A DNA stretch of 31,890 bases from Bacteroidales bacterium. GTDB taxonomy: Bacteria > Bacteroidota > Bacteroidia > Bacteroidales > UBA12077. Shown piece after piece: positions 9,862 through 29,342 of the stretch. Positions within the stretch are counted from its first letter, which is position 1, and each line of letters opens with the position of its first letter. Where the stretch lies: positions 1 through 31,890 of the forward strand of contig JANQHR010000098.1 in the NCBI GenBank assembly GCA_028282585.1, written 5' to 3'. Below the pieces are notes generated by a model. That model made no database searches and was not told where the DNA came from. It saw only the letters and a program-made list of their open reading frames with translations. The position numbers and the translations under genes were made by a program.

Positions 9862-12321
9862 TTATTCCTGAAAATAAACCCGTTTTACTCGCGATGAAAC
9901 ACTTGTGAATATCTCATATGGAATTGTTTCCAGGATATTAGCCAAATCAGTTACAGATTGTTCTTTACCAAAAACAATTACTTCATCTCCCTCGTGAATA
10001 TTGCAACCCGTTATATCAACCATACACATATCCATACATATATTACCTACAATCGGTACCGGAAAGCCGTTAATATATAGCTTCCCTTTTCCATTACCTA
10101 ATTTACGATCTAAACCATCAGCATATCCGACAGGAATAATTGCGATCGTCATATCACTATGTGCTTTTCCTTTTCTATTATAGCCAATTGTATCGTCTTT
10201 AGTAACTTGCTTAACCTGAATAACGGTACTTTTTAATGTACTTACCACCGAAAGCTGTTCCTGATTTGTTGCTGATATGCCATACAATCCTATTCCTAAA
10301 CGGACCATTTCGAATTGAGCTTCCGAAAAACGTTCTATGCCGGCAGAATTTGAAATATGTCGAGTTATCGGGTAATTGAATTTATTAGTAATCTCTGTAC
10401 TTAATTCATCGAATAATGAAATTTGCCTTTTAGTATAATTATCGTGAATAGGGTCATCGCTTCCTGCCAAATGTGAAAAGATTGTTGCTACCTTTACAGT
10501 TTTTGTTTCTTTTAAAACCTGTATTAAACGTAAAATCTCGCTTTTTAAAAATCCTAAACGATTCATACCCGTATCTAACTTCAAGTGTACAGAATAAGCC
10601 TTTAAGTTAACTTTTTCAAGTTCGTTTATAAACTGCTCTAAAATTCTAAAGTTATAAATCTCAGGTTCAAGCTGATACTTCAACATTAATCCAAAACTAT
10701 TTTGTTCAGGATTCATAACTATAATTGGAGTTTTTATTCCTGCTTCGCGTAATGCAACTCCTTCATCGGCAAAAGCAACACCCAGATAATCTACACGCTG
10801 ATATTGCAGTATATTCGCAATTTCAAATGTTCCACTTCCATAAGATAAAGCCTTAACCATAACCATTATTTTAGTTTCAGGTTTTAACTTTGATCTGAAA
10901 TAATTTAAGTTATGAACCAGAGAATTTAAATTAATTTCTAATACTGTTCTGTGCGTCTTTTCTTCTAATGCTGAAGAGATTCTTTCAAATTGAAAACTCC
11001 TTGATCCTTTTAATAGGATTGCCTCTTCTTGAAAATTTTCCTTACTAAATTCGCTTAAAAAATCGTCTGTTGTATTATAAAAAGTTTGGTTTAGTTTAAA
11101 TTGATTCTTTTGTGCAACAATCGATTTACCAATTCCAATTAATCTATCAACTTTGAATTTTTCCAATAATGAAGCTACTTCTATGTATAGTTCTTTGTCG
11201 TTTTTTCCACTTTGAAGTATATCGGATAAAATTAACGTTTTTTTCCTATGCTGATTTTGTTGGCTAAGGTAGTTTAAAGCAATCTCCAATGATTTTAAAT
11301 CTGAATTATAACTATCGTTTATAATTGAACAATTATTGGTTCCTTTTTTCAATTCCATACGCATAGCCACAGGTGGCAAATTTTCGAATCTACTTTTAAA
11401 TTCAATCGGATTAACCTCTAATGCGCATAATAATGATAAAACGTGAACGGCATCCTCAACGGAAGCCTTATCCGTAAATGGAATTGTTAGAGTATCGTTG
11501 TATTGTTTTAACTGAAATTTGATCTCTGTAGTATTGCCTTTTTGATTTGTTTTTACAACTAAATCGGCTACCTCATTTTCGGACCACGTAAAATGTTTCT
11601 TTTTGGAAAGAATTTCATCTTTTCGAACAAGTTTATCTATTAAATCTTGATCTTTCGAGTATACCAAAATATCACTATTGAAAAACAACTTTAATTTCTC
11701 AGTTGCTTTTTCTTTATAATCTTTAAAGTTTTCCTGGTGTGGTTCTCCTATATTTGTTATTAATCCTATATTTGGCTGGATAATCTTTTCCAGCTTTTCC
11801 ATTTCACCTGGCAATGAAATTCCAGCCTCAAAAACAGCCAAATCATAAATACCATCCATTAACCAAACAGACAGTGGAACTCCAACTTGCGAATTATAAC
11901 TTTTTGGATTTCTGATAATCTGCTTCTTTCCCTGCAGTATATAATAAATCCATTCTTTTACAATTGTTTTTCCATTACTCCCTGTGATTCCAATGACAGG
12001 ATATCTAAACTCTTTTCTGTGAAAAGCAGCTAGTTTCTGGAGGGCCCTTAATGTATTTTTTACAATTAAGAAGTTTGCTTTAGGAAAACTAAAATGATTT
12101 TTTGGTAAGAATTCAACTACAAAATTTTGGATTCCTCTGTTATAAAGCTCATCGATGAACTCATGTCCATCATGACGATTTCCTTTAATAGCGAAAAAAA
12201 GCGTATTTGGTGATGAAATGATATTCCTGCTATCAATTAGCAAATTATTTATTTCACAATCGTGCTTACCAACATATTGTGCTTGTATAATATCTGATAT
12301 TTGTGATGTAGTATAAATCAT
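9862..12321 (-). CDS. alr: Bifunctional MurF-like ligase / alanine racemase
   Basis: MurF part ([27 protein letters not shown]) fused to Alr part ([11 protein letters not shown] lysine, [27 protein letters not shown]). Confidence 0.95.
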
Positions 12322-17092: not shown

Positions 17093-18274
17093 ATGAAAGA
17101 AGTTGTAATTATATCTGCTGCACGCACTGCCATCGGAAACTTTGGAGGAAGTCTTGCTAATTTTTCCGCTGTTGATCTTGGAGTTTTTGCAGCAAAAGAA
17201 GCCATAAAAAGAGCTGGTATTAATCCTTCCGATATTGATGAAACAATTGTAGGTAATATTCTTTCTGCTGGAGAAGGACAAAATATAGCTCGCCAAATTT
17301 CAATTAATTCCGGAATTCCGGAGACCAGCCCGGCAATGACAATCAATAAACTTTGTGGATCGGGACTAAGAGCAGTAAGTATGGCTGCACAATTTATTAT
17401 GTTAGGCGATGCTGATATTGTTTTGGCAGGAGGAACAGAAAGCATGTCAAATGCTCCGTATCTACTAAAGAAAGCTCGCTTTGGATATAAAATGGGGCAC
17501 CATGAAATTGTTGATAGTATGATCCTGGATGGATTAACCGATGCTTTCAATAATTATCATATGGGTATAACAGCAGAGAATATAGCAGAACAATGGGAAA
17601 TTAGTCGTGAAAAGCAAGATGAATTCGCACTAAATAGTCAGTTAAAAACAGAGAAAGCCATTAAGGAAGGAAGATTTAAAGATGAAATTGTTCCTATAGA
17701 AATACCTCAACGTAAAGGAAGTCCAATTATTTTTGATAACGATGAATTCCCAAAAATGGGATTAAACATTGAAAAACTAGCCAGGCTTCGTCCGGCCTTT
17801 AAAAAGGATGGAACTGTTACAGCAGGCAATGCTTCAGGTATTAATGATGGAGCAGCAATGCTAATTGTTATGTCAAAAGATAAAGCTGATGAACTAGGAT
17901 TAAAACCAATAGCTAAAATTGTTTCTTATGCTAAGGCGGCACTTGATCCTAAAATTATGGGTTATGGCCCTGTTCCAGCAACTAAAGCAGCTTTGTTAAA
18001 AGCTAGATTAGAAATCGAAGATATCGATTTAATTGAAGCTAACGAAGCCTTTGCTGCTCAATCTATTGCGGTTGCCCGTGATTTAAATTTAGATCCCGAA
18101 AAGGTAAATGTTAATGGTGGAGCTATTGCTTTAGGGCATCCAATTGGAGCATCCGGAGCACGAATATTAACTACTTTATTATATGAAATGAGTAGAACCA
18201 ATGCAAAGAAAGGTTTGGCAACCCTTTGTATTGGGGGTGGACAAGGAACATCAATGATCGTTGAAAAATACTAA
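17093..18274 (+). CDS. Acetyl-CoA C-acetyltransferase (thiolase II, AtoB/PhaA-like)
   Basis: NKLCGSG catalytic Cys, [21 protein letters not shown]. Confidence 0.95.
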
Positions 18275-18296
18275 CATAAAATATAAAAAATTAATC

Positions 18297-19040
18297 ATGA
18301 AAAGATTAGAAAATAAAATTGCTATTATAACTGGTGGAGCAGACGGTATTGGAAAAGCCGGAGCTATTAAATTTGCTGACGAAGGTGCAGTCGTAATCAT
18401 ATGGGATATGAACGAAGAAAAAGGTGAAACTACTGCAAAGGAAATTAAAGATAAGGGAGGGAAAGCCGAATTTTTTAAAGTAAATACTGCCATTTTCTCA
18501 GACGTAGAAAAAGCTACAAACGATGCAATAGATGCATATGGACAAATTGATATTTTGGTTAACAATGCAGGTATCACAAGAGATTCTACATTAAAGAAAA
18601 TGACCAATGAACAATGGCAACAGGTTATTGATGTAAACTTAACAGGAGTTTTTAACTGCACCAAAAATGTAAGTCAGCACATGGTTGAAAGAAAGTATGG
18701 CAGAATTATTAATACTTCATCCGTTGTTGCTTTATATGGAAATTTTGGGCAAACTAATTATGTTGCGACAAAAGCCGGATTAATTGGAATGACCAAAACT
18801 TTAGCAAAAGAACTAGGAAGAAAAAACATTACTGTTAATGCAGTTGCTCCCGGCTTTATTTTAACAGAAATGGTAAGGCAAATGCCCCAAGATGTTTTAA
18901 AAGCTATGGAATCTAAAGTTCCTTTGCAGCGTTTGGGTAATCCTGAAGAAATTGCATCGGCTTACTTATTCTTAGCGAGCGATGAAGCAGCATATATTAA
19001 TGGCTCAGTATTAAGCGTTGATGGTGGAATGACAATTTAG
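18297..19040 (+). CDS. SDR, acetoacetyl-CoA / 3-oxoacyl reductase (PhaB/FabG-like)
   Basis: TGGADGIG, NNAGITRD, GQTNYVATK (YxxxK), VAPGFI; start adjusted to ATG 18297. Confidence 0.9.
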   Translation: MKRLENKIAIITGGADGIGKAGAIKFADEGAVVIIWDMNEEKGETTAKEIKDKGGKAEFFKVNTAIFSDVEKATNDAIDAYGQIDILVNNAGITRDSTLKKMTNEQWQQVIDVNLTGVFNCTKNVSQHMVERKYGRIINTSSVVALYGNFGQTNYVATKAGLIGMTKTLAKELGRKNITVNAVAPGFILTEMVRQMPQDVLKAMESKVPLQRLGNPEEIASAYLFLASDEAAYINGSVLSVDGGMTI

Positions 19041-19050
19041 TAAATGAAAG

Positions 19051-19087
19051 AAACGGGGATCATCATTATTGAGATTCCTGTTTTTTT
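19051..19087 (+). terminator. Intrinsic terminator-like hairpin after the reductase
   Basis: AAACGGGGATC (19051-19061) / GATTCCTGTTT (19073-19083) followed by a T run. Confidence 0.6.
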
Positions 19088-19121
19088 ATTTATCTTTTTA
19101 TACTTATTTAACAATATTATT

Positions 19122-20675
19122 ATGGCAACTTCGCAGCAAATTATTGGAACATCAATTCTCATTTTATTTTATTCCATATTGATTATTTATTTTGTTGTTC
19201 GTGGAGCACTAAAAACAAAAAGCTTAAACGATTATGCTGTTGGGAACTTTAATTTCTCTCCTGCATTTGTAGGTTTATCCTTGGCCGTTTCCATGACCAG
19301 TGCTGCTACTTTTGTAGTAAATCCAGGACTCATTTCCGTTTATGGATTTAGCGGAGTTTTATCCTTTGGGCTATTTTTCCCTTTAGCCACAATTATTTCT
19401 TTAATCGTTTTAACAAAAAGCTTCCGCAAACACGGTCAATCTTTAAAAGCAGTTACATTAGCACAATGGATTGGGAAACGGTATGAAAGTAAATATTATG
19501 CTCTTTTCATGGGCTTTTTATCGTTTTTATTGATCACATTTATTGTATTGATACTGGTTGCCCTAACGAAAGTTCTATCCAAATCATTAAACGCAAATGA
19601 AATTTGGATATTAGCTATAATCATCATTTTTGTATTTGGATACATGATGTTTGGTGGTGCAAATTCATTAGTGTATACAAATACCATTCAGGCCTTCGTA
19701 ATGTTAGTTGTTGCTTTCATCCTATTATTTTCAGGTTACGAGTATTTTAAAGATGGAATGGACGGCTTTTTTCAGAAATTAGCTGAAATTAATCCGGTTT
19801 TAACAAAATCAACCAATCCGGAAAGTGTTTTATTCCGAGACTTTTTTGAGATCATTTTTGCTCAACTTGTAGTTGGTGCGGCTGTTGTCTGCCAACCACA
19901 TATCATAACAAAATCCTTATTCCTAAAAGAAGAAAAAGATGTTAATAAATTTCTGGTTACTGCCGTTATTGCTGAAATTTTATTCTTTTCGGTTGTATTT
20001 GTAGGATTATATGCACGAATAGCATTCCCTGATTTAACAGCAAATGGTGAAGTATTAAAAACGGATGGAATTATACCTGCTTATGTTGTTAAAATATTTT
20101 CAAATGGAATATTATCTGTAATTATTGGTTTAGTTGTTATTTTAGGTTTAATAAGTGCAGGACTTTCAACCCTGGAAGGATTAATTCAATCTTTATCTAC
20201 TACGATTACCTCCGATATTATTAAACCACTTTTAGGCAATCGTATTAAACAAGAAAAATCGTTCATTCTTATTAATAAAATGGCAATTGTCTTTTTAGCC
20301 ATTATTTCATTTTTAGTTTCGGTAGATCAGCTATTAAATCCAAAATTAAGTGTCGCCATATTAGCACAAAATGGAGTATATGCTTATTTCTCGGTTGCAT
20401 TTATCCCCATTGTTTTCGGAATATTTATAAAGAATGTCAATTTAAAAGCTCCGGTTATTGCTTCAATCACTGCATTTGTAGTGCATTTTACTGTTTATTA
20501 TGGATTCCCTTATTTAGTAAATAATTTCGAAGCTGATTTTGGGCTTTTCACAAAATATTTGGAAGGCCCGGTTCGTAACCCAGCGATTGCATCAACATCT
20601 GCAATTCTAATATCGACTATTGTAGGAATTATAGCTCACCAAATGACAAAGCAAAAAATAAATCATAATGGATAA
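19122..20675 (+). CDS. Sodium:solute symporter (SSS/SLC5 family)
   Basis: Many TM helices; DYAVG, SMTSAATF..PG, YMMFGG...VYTNTIQ, QPHI, SAGLST; start adjusted to ATG 19122. Confidence 0.9.
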   Translation: MATSQQIIGTSILILFYSILIIYFVVRGALKTKSLNDYAVGNFNFSPAFVGLSLAVSMTSAATFVVNPGLISVYGFSGVLSFGLFFPLATIISLIVLTKSFRKHGQSLKAVTLAQWIGKRYESKYYALFMGFLSFLLITFIVLILVALTKVLSKSLNANEIWILAIIIIFVFGYMMFGGANSLVYTNTIQAFVMLVVAFILLFSGYEYFKDGMDGFFQKLAEINPVLTKSTNPESVLFRDFFEIIFAQLVVGAAVVCQPHIITKSLFLKEEKDVNKFLVTAVIAEILFFSVVFVGLYARIAFPDLTANGEVLKTDGIIPAYVVKIFSNGILSVIIGLVVILGLISAGLSTLEGLIQSLSTTITSDIIKPLLGNRIKQEKSFILINKMAIVFLAIISFLVSVDQLLNPKLSVAILAQNGVYAYFSVAFIPIVFGIFIKNVNLKAPVIASITAFVVHFTVYYGFPYLVNNFEADFGLFTKYLEGPVRNPAIASTSAILISTIVGIIAHQMTKQKINHNG

Positions 20676-21978
20676 TTTTAAAGAAATATATACAAGTAAG
20701 CTCACAAGCATTGAAGAAGCTGTAAAGCTTATGAAAAGTGATACAGACGTAATTGTTGCTCAGTGCGCTTCTGAACCGCAAGGTTGTATGTCTAAATTTC
20801 ACTTGGTAAAAGATCAGGTTCATAATGTCAAGGTTTTTTCTGTGTTAACACTAAAACCTTACGACTTTTACATGAAGCCCGAAATGAAAGGGCATTTCGA
20901 GTTATGTAGCTGGTTTCATGCTCCCGGATCAAGAGAGGCCATAAAAAATGGAGCAGGAACCGTTACATTTGTGCCAAACATGTTACATAGAGCTGCAACA
21001 GATCGTTTAAAAGTCAGAAAACCTCATCTATTTTTTGGAACCTGCACACCACCGGATGATAAAGGTTTTGTTTCTTTATCATTAGGTATAACCTACGAAA
21101 AAGAAATTATTGAAGCTGCGGATTTTGTCGTTTTAGAAGTAAATGATCAATTACCACGCACATTTGGAGATACTCATTTACATGTAAGTGATGTAGACTT
21201 TTTTGTTGAAAACTCCCAGGTTCCTCCTACTCTGCCTTCACCAAATCCGGATGAAGTGGCTATGCAAATCGGAAATAACATAGCTAAACTTGTTGAAGAT
21301 GGTTCAACCATACAATTAGGGATTGGGGACATTCCTAATGCAGCCGCTCTTTCTTTGAGAAATAAGAAAGATTTAGGAGTCCATACCGAAATGTTGGTTG
21401 ATTCCATGATGGAACTATACGAAATGGGTGTAATTAATAATACAAAAAAAGCCTATTACAAAGATAAGTTTGTGTGCACATTCGCCATGGGATCAGAGAA
21501 ACTATATAAATGGTTAGATAATAATCCAGCTGTGGAATTTTTGCGCGGTAAATATGTAAATGACCCTTGCGAAGTCCGTAAAAATTCCCAAATGGTATCA
21601 ATTAACACTTGCATTATGGTTGATTTTACAGGTCAGGTAGCAAGTGAATCCATTGGTATAAATCAATATTCAGGAACTGGAGGTCAAACCGATACGGCTG
21701 TTGGAGCCATAGAAGGATTTGATGGAAAAGGAAAGTCGATCATCGCCTGCCGTTCCACTGCAAAAAATGGGGAAGTTACGACCATTGTTCCTACCTTACC
21801 CGAAGGTACTGCAGTAACCTTGCACAGAAGTAATACGGATTATATTGTTACCGAGCATGGAATTGCACGTTTAACCGGATTAACTATAAAAGAAAGAACC
21901 GAAGCATTAATAAAAATTGCACATCCTGATTTTAGAGAAGAATTAAAACAAAAGGCTCAGGCCATGGGATATTTATAA
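20668..21978 (+). CDS. Acetyl-CoA hydrolase/transferase family, 4-hydroxybutyrate CoA-transferase-like
   Basis: DGSTIQLGIGDIP, LGVHTEM catalytic Glu, SGTGGQTD, YIVTEHGIA, IAHPDFRE. Confidence 0.9.
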   Translation: MDNFKEIYTSKLTSIEEAVKLMKSDTDVIVAQCASEPQGCMSKFHLVKDQVHNVKVFSVLTLKPYDFYMKPEMKGHFELCSWFHAPGSREAIKNGAGTVTFVPNMLHRAATDRLKVRKPHLFFGTCTPPDDKGFVSLSLGITYEKEIIEAADFVVLEVNDQLPRTFGDTHLHVSDVDFFVENSQVPPTLPSPNPDEVAMQIGNNIAKLVEDGSTIQLGIGDIPNAAALSLRNKKDLGVHTEMLVDSMMELYEMGVINNTKKAYYKDKFVCTFAMGSEKLYKWLDNNPAVEFLRGKYVNDPCEVRKNSQMVSINTCIMVDFTGQVASESIGINQYSGTGGQTDTAVGAIEGFDGKGKSIIACRSTAKNGEVTTIVPTLPEGTAVTLHRSNTDYIVTEHGIARLTGLTIKERTEALIKIAHPDFREELKQKAQAMGYL

Positions 21979-22020
21979 TCAAAAAAATGATCAATTAGTA
22001 AATATAAAATATTCAATGCT

Positions 22021-22054
22021 TGAAACCTGAAACCTGAAACCTGAAATCTGAAAT
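22021..22054 (+). repeat. Heptamer tandem repeat (TGAAA[C/T]C) x about 5
   Basis: TGAAACC TGAAACC TGAAACC TGAAATC TGAAAT. Confidence 0.85.
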
Positions 22055-22059
22055 AAAAT

Positions 22060-23067
22060 ATGTTACCAACAAAAATAATCGGAACAGGAGTTTATGCTCC
22101 GGGAAAACCCATAAATAATGAAGAACTTAAAAGTTTAGCTAAAATTGATTTCGATGCTGAAAAAACGGAGTTTGGCTTAGGAATAACGCAACGTCATATT
22201 GCTCACTTGCGGAAAATTGACGAAACTACAGCCGATTTTGCAACCAAAGCAGCTTTAAATGCGATTCAAGATGCAAATATCACACCCGATGATGTTAATT
22301 TATTTGCAGTTGCCACCGATACACCGGAATTTATCTCTCCGGCAACAGCCCTTATAGTTCAAGGTAGAATTCAGAAAAAGGAAAACTGGGCATCAAGCTT
22401 TGACGTTAGCGCATCATGTGCCAGTTTCACCATTGCCCTGGATAATATTGTTCGTACAATGGCCACAGATCCAAGTATAAAATATGCAGTTGTAATTGGA
22501 GTGTACAATATGCCTGCATATGTTCGCAAAGGAGATGCTTTCGGATATTCTATTTTTGCCGATGGTGCCGGCGCATTTGTATTGGAAAGAAAAGAAGGTG
22601 ATCCATCCAAATACATTAATGGCCAGCTTCTAACCGATGGAACGCAATGGGATTACGTAGGCGTATATGCTGGCGGAACCAGAAATCCGGTTACAGAAAA
22701 AGTTCTAAAAGAAGAAAAACACGGATTACTAAACATCCAACCTTTACCAAGCGATCGCAATGTTCGTTTATGGCCAATGGTAATCAAAAAATTACTGGAT
22801 AAATCTAATACAGGTATTGAGGAAATCGACCATTTTATTTTTACTCAAATTAATCGATCTGTCATTAAAAAAGTGATGGCTACTATAGATCAAGCGCTGG
22901 AAAAAACCAGTTTTGTTATGGATCGATATGGCTACACCGGATCAGGATGTGTTCCAATGGCCTTTCATCATGCAGTTAAAGAAAAGAAAATAAAGCGTGG
23001 TGATAAAATAGTATTCGTTGCTTCCGGTGCAGGATTAGCCGTAGGAAGTAACCTTTTTGTTTATTAA
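22060..23067 (+). CDS. 3-oxoacyl-ACP synthase III (FabH)-like protein, non-canonical
   Basis: KAS III fold motifs (IIGTGVYAP, FDVSASCASF, FADGAGA, GAGL); TQIN replaces HQAN and YGYT replaces xGNT. Confidence 0.85.
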   Translation: MLPTKIIGTGVYAPGKPINNEELKSLAKIDFDAEKTEFGLGITQRHIAHLRKIDETTADFATKAALNAIQDANITPDDVNLFAVATDTPEFISPATALIVQGRIQKKENWASSFDVSASCASFTIALDNIVRTMATDPSIKYAVVIGVYNMPAYVRKGDAFGYSIFADGAGAFVLERKEGDPSKYINGQLLTDGTQWDYVGVYAGGTRNPVTEKVLKEEKHGLLNIQPLPSDRNVRLWPMVIKKLLDKSNTGIEEIDHFIFTQINRSVIKKVMATIDQALEKTSFVMDRYGYTGSGCVPMAFHHAVKEKKIKRGDKIVFVASGAGLAVGSNLFVY

Positions 23068-23078
23068 AATTTCTAATC

Positions 23079-24098
23079 ATGACTGATATAAATGTAGGTA
23101 TTGTTGGAACCGGAATTTATATTCCCGAAGGCAGAATGACAGCCAAAAATATTTCTGAAGCTACACATGGTGTTTGGGTAGAAAAAGCTGTGATTGAAAA
23201 ACTGGGAATTGTTGAAAAACCCATTCCGGGAAAAAATGATGGAACACAAGAAATGGGTGTTAAAGCTGGTCTTGATGTATTGAAAAATACCGGTATTGAT
23301 CCTAAAGAAATCGATTTAATTTTATGCATTGGTGAAGAATGGAAAGAATATCCGCTAACAACTTCAGGTATATATATTCAGGAAAAAATTGGTGCAATTA
23401 ATGCATGGGCTATCGATATTCAGCAGCGTTGCGGGACCACTGTTGCAACCATGAAAATAGCCAAAGATATGATGATTTCAGATCCCGAGATCAATACAGT
23501 AATGATTGTTGGAGGCTATAGAAATGGAGACTTTATTGATTTTACAGATAACTCTGTTTCGTTTATGTTTAACCTTTCCTGTGGTGCGGGAGCTTTAATT
23601 CTAAAAAAGAATTATGGAAAGAATCTTTTATTAGGTAGTCACATTATGACTGACGGAACACTTGCACGTGATGCCGGCGTTGAGTTTGGCGGAACAGAAA
23701 AACCGATTACAAAGGAAAATGCCGATATAGCGTATAAATCTTTACGGGTATTTGATGAAAAACACATGAAAGACAGGCTAAATGAAGTTTCTCTAAAAAA
23801 CTGGTTTTATTGTATTGACAAGGCTTTTGAAAAATCCGGAATATCAAAAAAAGAATTAAGTTATTTAGCTGTTTTACATTTTAAACGTTCCATGAATGAG
23901 TTCATGCTCGAAGAACTTGGTTTAACTAAAGAGCAAAGTATATATCTAGAAAATTATGGTCATATTGGACAGATTGATCAGATATTATCTATTCATTTAG
24001 CATTATCAAAAGGTTTGGTAAAAGAAGGAACGGTAATTTCAATGATTGCTGCAGGAATTGGTTATGCCTGGGGCGCAAATGTAATTAAATGGGGATAA
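23079..24098 (+). CDS. 3-oxoacyl-ACP synthase III-like protein with Cys-His-His triad (PRK06840-like)
   Basis: VGIVGTGIYIP, IDIQQRCG, GGYRNGD, LHFKRS, YGHIGQIDQILS, AGIGYAWGA. Confidence 0.85.
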   Translation: MTDINVGIVGTGIYIPEGRMTAKNISEATHGVWVEKAVIEKLGIVEKPIPGKNDGTQEMGVKAGLDVLKNTGIDPKEIDLILCIGEEWKEYPLTTSGIYIQEKIGAINAWAIDIQQRCGTTVATMKIAKDMMISDPEINTVMIVGGYRNGDFIDFTDNSVSFMFNLSCGAGALILKKNYGKNLLLGSHIMTDGTLARDAGVEFGGTEKPITKENADIAYKSLRVFDEKHMKDRLNEVSLKNWFYCIDKAFEKSGISKKELSYLAVLHFKRSMNEFMLEELGLTKEQSIYLENYGHIGQIDQILSIHLALSKGLVKEGTVISMIAAGIGYAWGANVIKWG

Positions 24099-24271
24099 AA
24101 CAATGATAAGTCGCAAACATAATTACAATACATATATTTTTGATAATGTGTTTTTTACATAATTTATAATACAATATAACAAATTAGTCAACCTTAAATT
24201 AAAGTAAAACAACAATTAAATAGATTATCATTATAAATAACTTTAAACAAATAATAAAATTCTAAAAAGCT

Positions 24272-25117
24272 ATGAAAAATAAAAGTTTATTATGGATCGC
24301 AATTGTTCTTCTTGGAATAATTGGTTTTACCTCTTGTAGTGATGAAACAGAAAATAAAAGTCCTATTTTCGAAAGCATTGAAGTTTCTGATGATAATAAA
24401 ACCGTAACTGTTACATTTAGTGAACCTGTTTATGCTAACACAGATGGCACAGGAAATATTGAAAGTGGTGATATTAAAGTAACCATTACCGGGGTTGACT
24501 TTACATTTGATGTAACACATACAGCAGGCTCAGCTACTATGACAATAGCATTAACCATTACTTCAATTACAGAAGGAGACGAAATTGTAACTGTTGAACC
24601 AGCTAGCGCAACAAGCATTTATGATGCAGATGGAAAACCTATGGAAGCGACTGAAATATTAACTTCAGAAAGTTTAACGCAGGACCTTGGTATTATCGGC
24701 GAGTGGTATTCAGTTGGTGATAATGTTGCTACATTGTTAGTTGCTTATTTCAGTGTTGATTCAATTTATGCAGCATTTTATGATGACTATAAATATTTAG
24801 TAGAACAATTCAATATCGGGAATACAAGTTCAACTCCTGATGTAATTTATACAGGTACATTTGTAATTGAAAAATCAACTGTTGATGAAATATGGACTAT
24901 AGACTTAACTCAAGAATTACCATTTGCGGCTACCTCCGTAGGAATTTATGAGATTAAAACTTCTCCGGAAGTTTTATGGTATGAGGTTGTTCAAACTTCG
25001 GGAACTCAAAATATACCTCCTACTCCTGAAGGTGGATTTGGAAGCTCTAATGGAGGAACATTGGTTATAGATGGAGTTAACTGGAATCTACAAAAATTCA
25101 TACGAATTACAGAATAA
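24272..25117 (+). CDS. Surface lipoprotein with Ig-like N-terminal and beta-rich C-terminal domains
   Basis: Lipobox FTS-C followed by acidic SDETE; VTVTFSEPV Ig-like motif. Confidence 0.75.
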   Translation: MKNKSLLWIAIVLLGIIGFTSCSDETENKSPIFESIEVSDDNKTVTVTFSEPVYANTDGTGNIESGDIKVTITGVDFTFDVTHTAGSATMTIALTITSITEGDEIVTVEPASATSIYDADGKPMEATEILTSESLTQDLGIIGEWYSVGDNVATLLVAYFSVDSIYAAFYDDYKYLVEQFNIGNTSSTPDVIYTGTFVIEKSTVDEIWTIDLTQELPFAATSVGIYEIKTSPEVLWYEVVQTSGTQNIPPTPEGGFGSSNGGTLVIDGVNWNLQKFIRITE

Positions 25118-25146
25118 AAAAGCCTTTTTGCAGTGCATAGCACTTT

Positions 25147-25186
25147 GTAAAGTCGAATTATATCAACTAAATTCGGCTTTACTTTT
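25147..25186 (+). terminator. Intercistronic stem-loop, terminator or mRNA stabiliser
   Basis: GTAAAGTCGAATT (25147-25159) / AATTCGGCTTTAC (25170-25182) followed by TTTT. Confidence 0.55.
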
Positions 25187-25220
25187 AAAAACATAATTCA
25201 TTTTTAACTTAATACTACGC

Positions 25221-26843
25221 ATGAAAAAGTACATACTACTAACTTTAGTAGCAGTCATAATTCCTTTGAGCCATTCATTTGCTCAGGACGAAACTGAAGT
25301 TAAAAATCACCAGGAAAGTTCAAGCATAAACTATTTCGAACACGATATTCCTTATACGGCAAAAGCAAATAAAGAATTTCAGTTTCTTGCTTTTTTTATA
25401 ACGCAAGGAGTTAGTTCCAATTTTTATCCTGAGAGCAGCTTATTTAATGGTCAATTGGTTGGAAGATTATTTGGTCAAAACTCATCAACAACCTCTGATA
25501 CAGTGACTGCTTATTATATCGAACAAAGAATCTTACCATTTTTTATCTATCAACCCAAATTATTTAACGGAAGAGCTATTCTGAGAGCATCATTCGAAAT
25601 TGACTGGACCTGGGGAGATCAGGCATATGGTTTAAGTGGAAACAAAGGATCGGCTATTTCGGCAGACCAGGTTAATATACAAACCCAAAATATAGAGTTA
25701 GAATTAATTCCCTGGAAAAATTGGTATATAAACCTTGGTTTACAGAGACTATATGATACTCCTTTTAACCCTTATAGAACGTTTTTTGAAAAAATGACAA
25801 CTACTGGTTATCGCTTAGCTTATTGGGGAACAGATGCTGTTGGGGTAAGTGTTCGTTGGGATAGAGATTATTCTAAAACAAAAGCCGGGTTTTATAAACT
25901 TTACGAAAACAATGCGGAAGATCAGGATGATGTTACCTTAATGGAACTTGTTTATAGAAAGAAACTTTCTACCATGTGGAATCTTGGTGGTTCCATGTAC
26001 TATTTAATGGACAGAGGAAAAGGTCAGGGAGGAGTTTCGGTGTTTGGTCAAGGTTTAAATAGTACCCTGGTTAATTATACTGGCGGGTTTAATTTTGGTT
26101 TACCTACCAATGAATATCATGCTGATGTAGCGTGGATTGGAACTTTTTTCAGCAGAAACCCGGATTTTTGGTTAGATAGATTGCTGTTTACCGGATTTTT
26201 AAATTATAATCTCGGTACAGTAGAAACTAAGGAAAACGGAAGTTGGAATAAAGTTGCTGACATCGGAGGTATGGCTGCCAACTTGAGAGGTGCTTATCGA
26301 TATGGACAAACCTTAAATGATTATTTTTCAGTTGATCTTATCTATACTACTGGTGATGGCGATGGGCTGGATAATGATAAATACTCCGGAGTTATTACCG
26401 GAAACACTTGGGGAATGCCTGCTTCTGTATTTATAAGTAGTGGAGCTTATTTACTTTTTCCGCATGCTAATGTTGTAAATAGATTTACCCCGGTTGTTGC
26501 AGACATATCGAATATGGGTTATGGATTAACTGCAGGTACTGCTAATTTCCACAGAGATGTAATCCCTCATAAGTTAAATGCTAAATTAGGTGCGGCAATG
26601 GCATATAGCGCTGTTAAACCCCAAGATGCGGATAAATATATGGGAACAGAGTTAAATGCAGCTTTAAAATACTCATTTGGGCCATTTATGAGTCTTGAAC
26701 TACATGGTGCTTATATGTGGTTAGGTGATTTCTATGATAGTAATGACGCAAGTCATGGAACAGATATCAATGGAATCTATAATACTGAAAGACCAACCGA
26801 TCCATGGACTGTATTTTTAGTATATAAATGGTTAATGTTTTAA
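25221..26843 (+). CDS. Outer membrane beta-barrel protein, putative porin/channel
   Basis: Signal peptide ending FA-Q; Gly/aromatic-rich amphipathic strands; C-terminal VYKWLMF. Confidence 0.7.
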   Translation: MKKYILLTLVAVIIPLSHSFAQDETEVKNHQESSSINYFEHDIPYTAKANKEFQFLAFFITQGVSSNFYPESSLFNGQLVGRLFGQNSSTTSDTVTAYYIEQRILPFFIYQPKLFNGRAILRASFEIDWTWGDQAYGLSGNKGSAISADQVNIQTQNIELELIPWKNWYINLGLQRLYDTPFNPYRTFFEKMTTTGYRLAYWGTDAVGVSVRWDRDYSKTKAGFYKLYENNAEDQDDVTLMELVYRKKLSTMWNLGGSMYYLMDRGKGQGGVSVFGQGLNSTLVNYTGGFNFGLPTNEYHADVAWIGTFFSRNPDFWLDRLLFTGFLNYNLGTVETKENGSWNKVADIGGMAANLRGAYRYGQTLNDYFSVDLIYTTGDGDGLDNDKYSGVITGNTWGMPASVFISSGAYLLFPHANVVNRFTPVVADISNMGYGLTAGTANFHRDVIPHKLNAKLGAAMAYSAVKPQDADKYMGTELNAALKYSFGPFMSLELHGAYMWLGDFYDSNDASHGTDINGIYNTERPTDPWTVFLVYKWLMF

Positions 26844-26853
26844 ATTTTACAAG

Positions 26854-27807
26854 ATGAAAAAGATGAAAAACTACACAATTATATTAGTCGTATTTTCAAC
26901 GTTAATCATTGGTTGTTCTCCTTATAAAAATGTTCCAAACATAAAATCAATGAGTGAACTCAACTATGGCTATGAAGTGAAATATGCGGAGCTATCAAAT
27001 GATATAAAACTTGCATATGTTGATGAAGGTAACGGATCTGAAACAATTATTTTCATTCACGGTTTAGGAAGTTATATCCCGGCATGGAAAAAGAATATTG
27101 ATGAATTGAGTAAAAATTACAGATGCATTGCTATTGATCTTCCTGGCTATGGTAAATCATCTAAAAATCCTCATAGCGGTTTAATGAGTTTTTATGCCAA
27201 AACGGTTGCTGAATTCATAGATAAATTGGAATTAAGCAAAGTAACTTTAGCCGGACATTCAATGGGTGGTCAAATTTCAATTGTAACTGCTTTGCATTTT
27301 CCAGATAAAGTTGAAAAATTAATACTTGTAGATCCGGCTGGTTTTGAATTATTCCATCCCGGACAACGCCTTTGGTTTAAGGATGTTATGACTCCTAATT
27401 TGGTTCGATTAACCTCTGTTGAAGCCATTGAAACGAATTTAGCTTCTAATTTTTATAATATGCCAAAGGATGCCATGTTTATGATAGAAGATCGCATTGC
27501 CATGAGAACTGCAGACGACTTCGAAAATTATTGCTATACAGTAAGCCAGTCTGTGGCTGGAATGGTTGATGAACCTGTTTTTGATAAATTAAAACACATA
27601 AAACAACCAACACTAATCTTTTTTGGAGAAAATGATAACTTAATTCCTAACCGTTATTTAAATCCCGGTAAAACAGAACCTATTGCAAGAGCAGGAGCAA
27701 ATGAGATTAAGAATAGTCAATTGGTTATGGTTCCAAAATGTGGTCATTTTATGATGTTCGAAAAACCTGAAATTTTTAATACTGAAGTTTCAAACTTTCT
27801 TAAATAA
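26854..27807 (+). CDS. Lipoprotein alpha/beta hydrolase (esterase/depolymerase-like)
   Basis: Lipobox IIG-C; FIHGLG oxyanion, DLPGYGKS, GHSMGG, GENDNLIP, CGHF. Confidence 0.9.
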   Translation: MKKMKNYTIILVVFSTLIIGCSPYKNVPNIKSMSELNYGYEVKYAELSNDIKLAYVDEGNGSETIIFIHGLGSYIPAWKKNIDELSKNYRCIAIDLPGYGKSSKNPHSGLMSFYAKTVAEFIDKLELSKVTLAGHSMGGQISIVTALHFPDKVEKLILVDPAGFELFHPGQRLWFKDVMTPNLVRLTSVEAIETNLASNFYNMPKDAMFMIEDRIAMRTADDFENYCYTVSQSVAGMVDEPVFDKLKHIKQPTLIFFGENDNLIPNRYLNPGKTEPIARAGANEIKNSQLVMVPKCGHFMMFEKPEIFNTEVSNFLK

Positions 27808-27826: not shown

Positions 27827-27863
27827 AAAGAGGTAATAAAAATTTATTACCTCTTTCTTTTTT
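27827..27863 (+). terminator. Intrinsic terminator closing the thiolase-hydrolase locus
   Basis: AAAGAGGTAATAAA / TTTATTACCTCTTT perfect inverted repeat followed by a T run. Confidence 0.8.
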
Positions 27864-27914
27864 ATTCTTTATTAAAATTTCAGTACTTTTCCTTAATCAA
27901 AAGCTTAGTATTTG

Positions 27915-29342
27915 ATGAAACAAAAGCTTACAAAATTTACCGATTTTGCAAACTCATTATATCCGCATGAGCTTGATTATCTTCTTTCTATTCAGCAATT
28001 TGCAACGAATGAAAATCTTAAAATATTAAATCTAATCAACTACAATTGCAAAAACCCTTTAAATACCTTACCATACGACGGAAGCTTAGATAAACGAAAA
28101 TATTCATATCTTAAAAATTGGATAGACAACAAGCTTAATGATATTGATGTTGACTATTATTATGAGTGGCTAATAAGTATTGAAAAACAAGTTATGACAG
28201 ATGCTATAATACCAGATGAAGAAAAAGATTTATTAGAAAAAACAAATACGACAAAACACACTCATTATTATTTTATCCGTTTCTATGAATTATTACAACA
28301 TTATCGTGACTATCTCTTAATTCGCGTACGAAACCAATATTATATTCCCATATCTGAATATCTTGAAAATTATAGAGAAAAGTATCAGTTAACATTAGAA
28401 GTAAATAAAAAATTAAATAACGCTACAATAGATATCATAAAGCAACATTCAACAACTGAAAATAAAACCGAATCAAAACATTGGGAAAAATTTTTAAAAG
28501 AAACTTTCTTAAACAAAAATTTGGATGGATATACCAGGTATAGAGCCATTGTGCGATTAACATTTTTGTATTACAACTATCGCGAATTTGAGAAACTAAG
28601 ATCCATTTATGAAACCCTGGATAAAATGTTTAAGTCGGATGTTTTCTATTCAAAACGTATTCTTGCTAACTATTATGGCAACCGCGCAATGATGCATTTA
28701 AAACTTCGTGAACTTGATGAAGCTGAAAAATATGGTTTCTTATCTATCCGGCAGCATAACAGCGATTATCTATTTTACTTACTAAATTTAATTGGTGTAC
28801 TTCTGCAGCGAGAAAAGAATAGGGAAGCATACAATTTAATGACCGAATCCATTCCTGAATTAAAAAAAACAAATAGTTATTACTATAAAATTGGCTTTGT
28901 TGCATTTTATATAAGAACATTGTTAGCAAATAATATGATTGACAAAGCAGTAAGTTATGCTGAAACTTTCCTTGATGGTTATAAAAAAGAAATCTTAAAA
29001 CACCGATGGCATTTATTTTTTAGTGAATATATACGAGCTCTTTTTAAAGCAGAAAAGTATTCAAAATTACTGTCGATTGTTAAACGTTATAATTTGGTAA
29101 ATAAGGAAAAACTATTTATTGGTAAAGCAAAATACTTACCCATTATATATTGGTACGGCACTGTGGCTAGCTATATAGAGGGTGCCATATCGGAAAAGAA
29201 ACTAAAGGAGATAATTATAAAATCCGGGCAATCACTCATTAAACATAAATATAAATCCATTAAAATTAATGAATTACTTGACGAGCTCTCGGGATCGCTA
29301 CCAAATATTACAAAGGAATTAAAACGCGAAATTCTTATGTAA
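27915..29342 (+). CDS. Hypothetical alpha-helical (TPR-like) protein
   Basis: About 475 aa, Tyr/Leu/Lys-rich helical repeats (e.g. ANYYGNRAMMHLKLRELDEAEKY); no signal peptide. Confidence 0.7.
   Translation: MKQKLTKFTDFANSLYPHELDYLLSIQQFATNENLKILNLINYNCKNPLNTLPYDGSLDKRKYSYLKNWIDNKLNDIDVDYYYEWLISIEKQVMTDAIIPDEEKDLLEKTNTTKHTHYYFIRFYELLQHYRDYLLIRVRNQYYIPISEYLENYREKYQLTLEVNKKLNNATIDIIKQHSTTENKTESKHWEKFLKETFLNKNLDGYTRYRAIVRLTFLYYNYREFEKLRSIYETLDKMFKSDVFYSKRILANYYGNRAMMHLKLRELDEAEKYGFLSIRQHNSDYLFYLLNLIGVLLQREKNREAYNLMTESIPELKKTNSYYYKIGFVAFYIRTLLANNMIDKAVSYAETFLDGYKKEILKHRWHLFFSEYIRALFKAEKYSKLLSIVKRYNLVNKEKLFIGKAKYLPIIYWYGTVASYIEGAISEKKLKEIIIKSGQSLIKHKYKSIKINELLDELSGSLPNITKELKREILM

Follow-up and report, generated by a model that had tools for sequence, protein, structure and literature searches.

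Catalysis by FabH, the starter enzyme of fatty-acid synthesis with the ketoacyl-acyl carrier protein (ACP) synthase III (KAS III) fold, requires a Cys-His-Asn triad. KAS I/II enzymes use a Cys and two His, and PqsB, one partner of the PqsBC pair, has lost the catalytic Cys. The KAS III fold, with a nucleophile at the position of the FabH Cys, is also shared by DpsC, CerJ and ChlB3 from Streptomyces polyketide pathways (PDB 3s3l and 7eqi). DpsC is described in a review with an “AT-like catalytic triad” (that is, acyltransferase-like) of S118-H297-D302, with self-acylation and with acyl transfer to ACP (PMC12664062). ChlB3 has the triad C113-H296-D301, the Cys of CerJ is activated by the same His-Asp pair, and enzymes of the CerJ type form esters (PMC9573744). 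A coenzyme A (CoA)-dependent cleavage of esters is described for PhaZa1 of Ralstonia eutropha (Uchino et al. 2007), which mobilizes poly(3-hydroxybutyrate) (PHB) thiolytically, a 3-hydroxybutyrate (3HB) ester and CoA giving 3HB-CoA (PMC7147478). Here we describe two adjacent KAS III-fold genes, KASA and KASB, in a contig of a Bacteroidales bacterium (assembly GCA_028282585.1, contig JANQHR010000098.1; the window is this whole stretch of 31,890 nucleotides). Both depart from the FabH triad, each in its own way. We favor, at a probability of about 0.45, the reading that the operon scavenges esters and that the two proteins are acyl transferases of the ketosynthase (KS) III-like kind, acting independently of each other, with a coupling of KASB to the activation of acids by CoA.

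KASA (22060..23067, + strand, 335 aa) and KASB (23079..24098, + strand, 339 aa) are two real KAS III-fold genes. The TAA of KASA ends at 23067 and the ATG of KASB lies at 23079, which leaves 11 bases between them, the spacing that an earlier annotation made from the letters of the window (the sequence-only reading) had given. The motifs which that reading had picked out (ASCAS, FTQIN and YGYTG; QRCG, LHFK and YGHIG) are all present in the translations, SASCAS, FTQIN and YGYTG in KASA and QRCG, LHFK and YGHIG in KASB. Both proteins match PF08545 and PF08541 above the Pfam cut-offs, and the closest solved relative of both is FabH of Aquifex aeolicus (2ebd; E = 3.4×10−37 for KASA and 3.4×10−24 for KASB). 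Their mutual identity is only 24%. When aligned to 2ebd with HMMER, KASA has Thr262 at the column of the FabH His (HQAN) and Tyr292 at the column of the FabH Asn (GNT), and thus lacks both residues, as the sequence-only reading had claimed. KASB has His295 at the FabH Asn column, and its His267 (in LHFK) falls one residue past the FabH His column. The nucleophilic Cys is kept in both proteins (Cys120 in KASA, Cys118 in KASB) and is invariant in their homologs. An AlphaFold2 model of KASA has a mean predicted local distance difference test score (pLDDT) of 89.4, and its top Foldseek matches are FabH structures with template modeling (TM) scores of up to 0.85. FabH is also among the best structure matches of KASB, with Z of about 27.

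The conservation of these sites was measured in a wider set of genomes. A scan of genome contigs yielded 477 confirmed KASB relatives, and the best 80 loci were kept for the locus counts given throughout. The alignment comprised the window proteins, all KASA-type and KASB-type open reading frames (ORFs) of the 80 loci, and the six other KAS III-like paralogs of the genome. Without exception, the 56 KASA-type sequences (the window and 55 loci, with identity down to 35%) have Cys/Thr/Tyr and the 81 KASB sequences have Cys/His/His. A further column is fixed differently in the two families, as it holds Asp300 in all 81 KASB sequences and Cys297 in all 56 KASA sequences, and in the five genome paralogs that keep the Asn it is Thr, Ser or Cys. 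The invariant site is therefore Cys120, Thr262, Tyr292 and Cys297 in KASA and Cys118, His267, His295 and Asp300 in KASB. Over their whole lengths, 94 of 339 residues are invariant in KASB (81 sequences) and 41 of 335 in KASA, and KASB is about 70% identical between the Bacteroidota-type and the Firmicutes-type loci described below. KASA was also searched with HMMER over 1.84 billion cluster representatives (50% identity), among which 97 proteins were found at E = 10−30 or better. Four-position signatures were read from the best 150 representatives, 136 of them full-length (at least 280 aa). C-T-Y-C occurs in 17 of the 136, the top scorers, C-S-Y-S in 15 and C-H-N-S/T in 89, followed by C-P-Y-C and C-S-Y-C in two each and 11 other signatures found once each. 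The invariance in both families and the recurrence of signatures among the KASA representatives argue that the rewired sites define families and do not reflect chance or decay. The active-site substitutions are thus family-defining, and the family alignment that the sequence-only reading had proposed for TQxN and YGYT came out in favor of their conservation. We know of no characterized counterpart of a Cys/Thr/Tyr/Cys site without histidine, such as that of KASA, although no search was aimed at this signature.

Neither protein is a standard FabH, a point on which the sequence-only reading was right. The FabH triad is replaced by C-T-Y in KASA and by C-(L)H-H in KASB, as judged against 2ebd and the FabH paralogs of the same genome. 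Both proteins also miss the NCBIfam FabH cut-offs of TIGR00747 (249) and NF006829 (292.1), with scores of 185.9 and 159.5 for KASA and of 112.9 and 94.4 for KASB. They resemble FabH in their best sequence and structure matches and in the same two Pfam domains, but they differ in the lost triad, in the scores below the cut-offs and in having no fatty-acid synthesis neighbors. The C-terminal domain of KAS III is matched eight times in the genome, and some of these matches are canonical C-H-N genes located on other contigs; the pair was rejected as the FabH of this organism because canonical FabH genes lie elsewhere. KASB belongs to NCBIfam NF005308 (PRK06840), which it matches with 460.2 bits (cut-off 315) along residues 5-339, and KASA, with 126.8 bits, does not. 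NF005308 carries the name “3-oxoacyl-ACP synthase,” the clusters returned by ESM Atlas are all auto-named in the same way, and the database name for both families is “ketoacyl-ACP synthase III.” A literature search returned no paper with the accession PRK06840 and no study behind the NF005308 name. The label “ketoacyl-ACP synthase III” misfits both KASA and KASB, which are clearly not FabH.

The site of KASB resembles that of the acyltransferase-type enzymes. Judged by position and spacing, its Cys118, His295 and Asp300 appear to match the triad of DpsC and ChlB3: the three residues follow one another in the same order, the His-x4-Asp spacing is shared, and the numbers differ by only a few positions. 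The His stands at the FabH Asn position with the Asp five residues on, an arrangement that implies ping-pong acyl transfer. Short queries were also tried. The C-terminal 100 aa of KASB retrieved ChlB3 at E = 0.011 and CerJ at E = 0.046, and a 35-aa motif query gave no relevant match. KASB differs from DpsC, CerJ and ChlB3 in its weak overall similarity to them (E = 2.6×10−9 for ChlB3 and 3.6×10−6 for CerJ), in its setting, which is catabolic uptake with no ACP partner as opposed to a polyketide cluster, and in its coupling to, or fusion with, a CoA-transferase and a hydrolase. KASA departs further, having Tyr292 and Cys297 in place of the His and the Asp. KASA and KASB can be read as uncharacterized variations on the KS III-like acyltransferases, placed in what is probably a catabolic context.

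The catabolic setting is suggested by the operon itself, which spans 17093-27807 on the + strand and contains, in order, a thiolase, a reductase, a symporter, a CoA-transferase, KASA, KASB, a lipoprotein, a probable beta-barrel and a probable esterase. The thiolase (acetyl-CoA C-acetyltransferase; 17093..18274) has Thiolase_N and Thiolase_C domains and BktB/PhaA-like NCBIfam matches, with 506 bits against TIGR01930 (cut-off 240.55). It is followed by a FabG/PhaB-like short-chain 3-oxoacyl reductase (SDR; 18261..19040; adh_short_C2), which scores above the cut-off of the FabG model TIGR01830 (312.3 bits, cut-off 297.75) and below that of the acetoacetyl-CoA reductase model TIGR01829 (279.6 bits, cut-off 302.1). 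The listed TTG start of the reductase overlaps the thiolase by 14 bp, and with a Pfam match from residue 19 the true start may be downstream. Next are a sodium:solute symporter (19044..20675; PF00474 SSF), a probable monocarboxylate importer, and a CoA-transferase of the acetyl-CoA hydrolase/transferase family (20668..21978; PF13336 and PF02550; 266 bits against TIGR03948, under the cut-off of 674.8). KASA is separated from the CoA-transferase by 81 bp, largely occupied by a heptamer tandem repeat (TGAAACC, 4.7 copies, 96% matches; 22021..22053, + strand), which could be a regulatory or slippage-prone element. Downstream of KASB are a lipoprotein of 281 aa (24272..25117; signal peptide, Cys22), to which no Pfam family was matched, and a probable outer-membrane beta-barrel of 540 aa (25221..26843; signal peptide, C-terminal Phe), for which the Pfam search gave no family but just a faint Alginate_exp match (E = 0.052). 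Together these two proteins may make up a channel, so far undescribed, through which small esters or acids are taken up. The last gene encodes an alpha/beta-hydrolase lipoprotein, a probable periplasmic esterase (26854..27807; lipobox LIIGC, nucleophile GHSMG), with a distant match to the intracellular short-chain-length polyhydroxyalkanoate (PHA) depolymerase model NF050089 (106.6 bits, cut-off 300). A hairpin with a 13-bp stem followed by a T-run (27827..27856, + strand) probably ends the operon.

The uptake operon is widespread, and few of its proteins are as well conserved as KASB. Among the 80 loci, those with the lipoprotein, the barrel or a close symporter homolog were taken as the Gram-negative type (54 loci), and the other 26, which include Tissierellia, Soehngenia, Neobacillus, Bacillus and Wukongibacter, as the Firmicutes type. 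KASA is present in 52 of the 54 Gram-negative-type loci, and all nine genes from thiolase to esterase in 36 (many loci are at contig ends), with the thiolase in 41, the symporter in 47, the lipoprotein in 51 and the barrel in 49. The Firmicutes type has a core of hydrolase, KASB and CoA-transferase, together with a Liv-type ATP-binding cassette (ABC) importer and a sigma-54/PAS activator; the CoA-transferase is found in 24 of the 26 loci, the alpha/beta-hydrolase in 23, the reductase in 15, and the thiolase and KASA in three each. In Wukongibacter, a lipase-like protein and a symporter are among the neighboring genes. Five Firmicutes-type loci (L005, L010, L017, L030 and L056) contain a gene of 132-142 aa for a MaoC-type (R)-specific enoyl-CoA hydratase, which fits (R)-3-hydroxyacyl-CoA intermediates. 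The hydrolases have a signal peptide with Cys in the Gram-negative type and none in the Firmicutes type, and an AMP-ligase stands in for the CoA-transferase in two cases (L076 and G170).

In the Firmicutes, 23 pairs of adjacent KASB and CoA-transferase genes were seen, and in most of them the two genes overlap. Furthermore, seven longer KASB relatives were found, namely four KASB-CoA-transferase proteins (784-798 aa), two hydrolase-KASB proteins (617-646 aa), and one with an ABC ATPase fragment. The four KASB-CoA-transferase proteins are P0247-P0250. The fusion sequences retain all KASB motifs and differ in their linkers, and the fusion clusters have several full-length members from different assemblies. 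The fusions and the overlapping genes suggest that KASB works closely with the CoA-activating step. The natural KASB-CoA-transferase fusions are also a ready construct for biochemistry and structure work.

The combination of importers, esterase, CoA-transferase, reductase and thiolase, with no PHA synthase found (searches of the 98% complete genome for PhaC_N, class III PhaC and Esterase_PHB were all negative), points to the scavenging of 3-hydroxybutyrate esters, and the catabolism of such esters that the sequence-only reading had proposed agrees with this context. The operon probably serves the uptake and oxidation of an ester or acid from outside the cell. Judged from the gene context, the likeliest substrate consists of (R)-3-hydroxybutyrate units, for example in esters such as fragments of PHB. 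Under this reading, the lipoprotein esterase and the outer-membrane channel would act first, the esterase trimming external polyester fragments, and the Na+ symporter would import the acid, monomer or dimer, which would then receive its CoA from the CoA-transferase. KASB, as the conserved core working tightly with the CoA-transferase, would be acylated on Cys118, activated by His295-Asp300, and would pass the acyl group to CoA in a ping-pong manner. Transfer through acyl-S-Cys118 is the most likely course because Cys118, His295 and Asp300 along with His267 appear to form the arrangement of DpsC, CerJ and ChlB3. The reductase and the thiolase would finally convert 3HB-CoA to acetyl-CoA. KASA probably performs an analogous step, perhaps on another substrate, since KASA elsewhere replaces KASB in the same type of operon.

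Whether the acyl transfer by KASB is specifically a thiolysis, that is, a CoA-dependent ester cleavage in CoA-activated 3HB dimers or oligomers, in which a dimer-CoA and CoA would give two 3HB-CoA, is more doubtful; it is the reaction that we favor and find plausible, though at a probability well short of even. Such a CoA cleavage of a 3HB ester is also the chemistry of PhaZa1, but PhaZa1 depolymerizes the native granules of an organism that itself produces PHB, whereas KASB has the thiolase fold and belongs to a probable scavenger in which no PHA synthase was found. An extended version, in which KASB is an ester:CoA acyltransferase of a new thiolase-superfamily kind, KASA is a second version of it, and the chemistry is run by a complex of hydrolase, KASB and CoA-transferase, is a tentative proposal that we consider possible rather than probable. 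If it is true, each ester bond would give 3HB-CoA directly with no hydrolysis loss, making PHB scavenging conserve the bond energy, and thiolysis of polyester fragments by KASB would be a new reaction of the thiolase superfamily and would alter the energy balance presumed for the microbial degradation of PHB and bioplastics.

Several observations weigh against the favored reading. Ester thiolysis is thermodynamically uphill, and the cytoplasmic hydrolases of the Firmicutes could leave KASB with no ester bond to act on. The proposed substrate is drawn from gene context, and the literature search returned no study of the KASA or KASB family and no biochemical datum. By overall sequence KASB is nearer to FabH (2ebd) than to ChlB3 or CerJ, and its match to the DpsC/ChlB3 triad comes from position and spacing, not from a residue-level alignment. 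The KASB model is mediocre (pLDDT 74), and when it was compared by VIA-align/Foldseek, FabH, ZhuH, OleA, PqsBC, BioZ and MxnB were all tied at Z of 25.6-27.4. With Z values within about 2 units, the fold comparison fails to separate FabH-like from acyltransferase-like groups, and CerJ, ChlB3 and DpsC are absent among the 50 structure matches listed for KASB. Also, a second invariant His (His267), as in condensing DpsC-type enzymes, leaves room for a Claisen reaction in KASB. The sequence-only reading had called both enzymes non-decarboxylating; this is well grounded for KASA, whose site has no His or Asn, and is less secure for KASB, which keeps two His. A last point on this side is the predicted KASA-KASB complex, which is considered next.

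The pair may instead act as an obligate or preferred heterodimer of the PqsBC type, with a composite active site or divided labor. In 51 loci KASA and KASB lie side by side; most of the gaps measure 2-45 bp, the median being about 14 bp, and the two genes share the operon in three different gene orders. The KASA-KASB complex model has an interface score (ipSAE) of 0.87, the best control being 0.53, and passes a mark that 58 of 80 solved complexes also attain, against 2 of 110 mismatched pairs. At least 92% of the contacts agree between model runs, the partners have pLDDT of at least 88, and in the model they meet at the surface through which KAS III dimers canonically form. For the heterodimer, the structure prediction called for by the sequence-only reading gave a passing model, but because KAS III homodimers and PqsBC have already been solved, the pass may show only likeness to them. 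The pair resembles PqsBC of Pseudomonas quinolone synthesis (PDB 5dwz and 6esz) in having two side-by-side KAS III-like genes, non-canonical residues and the usual interface (predicted here); it differs in that KASA and KASB both retain an invariant Cys and each occur alone in many genomes.

If the two proteins were obligate subunits, then each would be expected to travel with the other. However, KASB is without a neighboring KASA in 23 of the 26 Firmicutes-type loci, and when five such genomes were searched whole, the best KASA matches in all five were KASB itself or a canonical FabH with HQAN and GN. Conversely, 301 evenly sampled Bacteroidota genomes included three with KASB and 17 with KASA-type matches (37-42% identity, E = 10−60 or better). 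TQIN and GYTGSAC are present in all five KASA-type loci read from KASB-free genomes (nine other positive genomes lie outside this motif count). Such KASA-only loci have a reductase, KASA, an AMP-ligase, a major facilitator superfamily (MFS) transporter or symporter, a lipoprotein with a barrel or TonB receptor, and an esterase. Nor does KASB carry a signature of its association with KASA, as no alignment column is fixed for one residue in the 53 Gram-negative sequences linked to KASA and for another in the 23 Firmicutes sequences free of it. Six columns differ by majority, and at five of the six the three KASA-bearing Firmicutes loci side with the other Firmicutes. No KASA-KASB fusion was found among the seven long KASB relatives or the best 150 KASA representatives, the longest of which has 485 aa, and a 441-aa KASA relative (P0267) showed no extra Pfam domain. 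These findings speak against the obligate PqsBC-like heterodimer of the sequence-only reading, and a dependence of either protein on the other seems unlikely. We read KASA and KASB as two separate, catalytically live enzymes, each self-sufficient, and not as an obligate two-subunit enzyme; a facultative heterodimer, which the complex model would allow, is possible. The genome has a second tandem KAS III-like pair (contig C101, L084/L087). One of its proteins has 424 aa with C-H-N, and that of the second gene has 349 aa with Phe at the position of the nucleophilic Cys and neither the His nor the Asn. This pair is a better candidate than KASA-KASB for a PqsBC-like active/inactive pair.

A different role for the same triad would be that of an acyl-CoA:ACP transacylase or primer enzyme similar to DpsC and ChlB3, by which KASB feeds scavenged 3-hydroxybutyryl or acetoacetyl groups into fatty-acid synthesis and the FabG-like reductase works on the ACP ester. 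Its triad type is that of ACP-loading enzymes, and the neighboring SDR scores above the FabG equivalog cut-off of NCBIfam. Against this, no ACP gene was seen in the cluster, and the one 89-aa neighbor tested proved to be an ACT domain protein. The fusions and the translational coupling are instead with the CoA-transferase and the hydrolase, and the thiolase, the importers and the sigma-54 activators indicate bulk catabolism. We therefore consider an ACP-directed role quite unlikely.

Little weight is likewise given to carbon-carbon chemistry, either a thiolase-like retro-Claisen cleavage, for which the SDR would supply an unusual 3-oxoacyl ester or thioester, or a condensation like that of NphT7. 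The Cys and two His of KASB are the KAS I/II set, and the KASA-only loci combine KAS, SDR, AMP-ligase and hydrolase, which are the OleABCD enzyme families. The KASA site, however, has no His or Asn, the operon already has an ordinary thiolase, and no malonyl-CoA source was seen in the cluster. The Bacteroidota hydrolase is moreover a periplasmic lipoprotein, and every version of the cluster is flanked by importers. The idea of an Ole-type cluster for olefins or beta-lactones was rejected on the last two grounds, namely the lipoprotein nature of the hydrolase and the constant presence of importers. Finally, it is very improbable that the KAS-like enzymes make 3HB oligo-esters from the thiolase and reductase products for export via the barrel, since, even though CerJ-type enzymes make esters and a thiolase-reductase pair is present with no PhaC found, every locus version has importers (symporter, Liv ABC, MFS or TonB receptor), esterases, enzymes that activate free acids with CoA, and substrate-responsive sigma-54 activators. 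A place for the pair in a locus of PHB synthesis was rejected, as the genome searches found no PhaC and importers are present.

The sequence-only reading had reasoned that conserving the ester-bond energy would suit an anaerobe, and this rationale is weak, as a heme-copper oxidase subunit I is encoded in the genome and records of Bacillus, Neobacillus and Algivirga also contain KASB. The oxidase subunit lies on contig C1 (27983-29314; 484.6 bits), four POR_N matches (pyruvate:ferredoxin oxidoreductase genes) are found in the same genome, and the source organism may not be a strict anaerobe.

Downstream of the operon hairpin is a 476-aa helical, Lys/Tyr-rich protein (27912..29342, + strand) with a TTG start and a faint TPR match, a possible regulator. 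It adjoins the cluster in 37 of the 54 Gram-negative-type loci, at times upstream on the opposite strand. Elsewhere in the window, an ORF of 819 aa on the − strand (9862-12321) has Mur ligase domains and a complete alanine racemase, and encodes a fused MurF-like/Alr protein.

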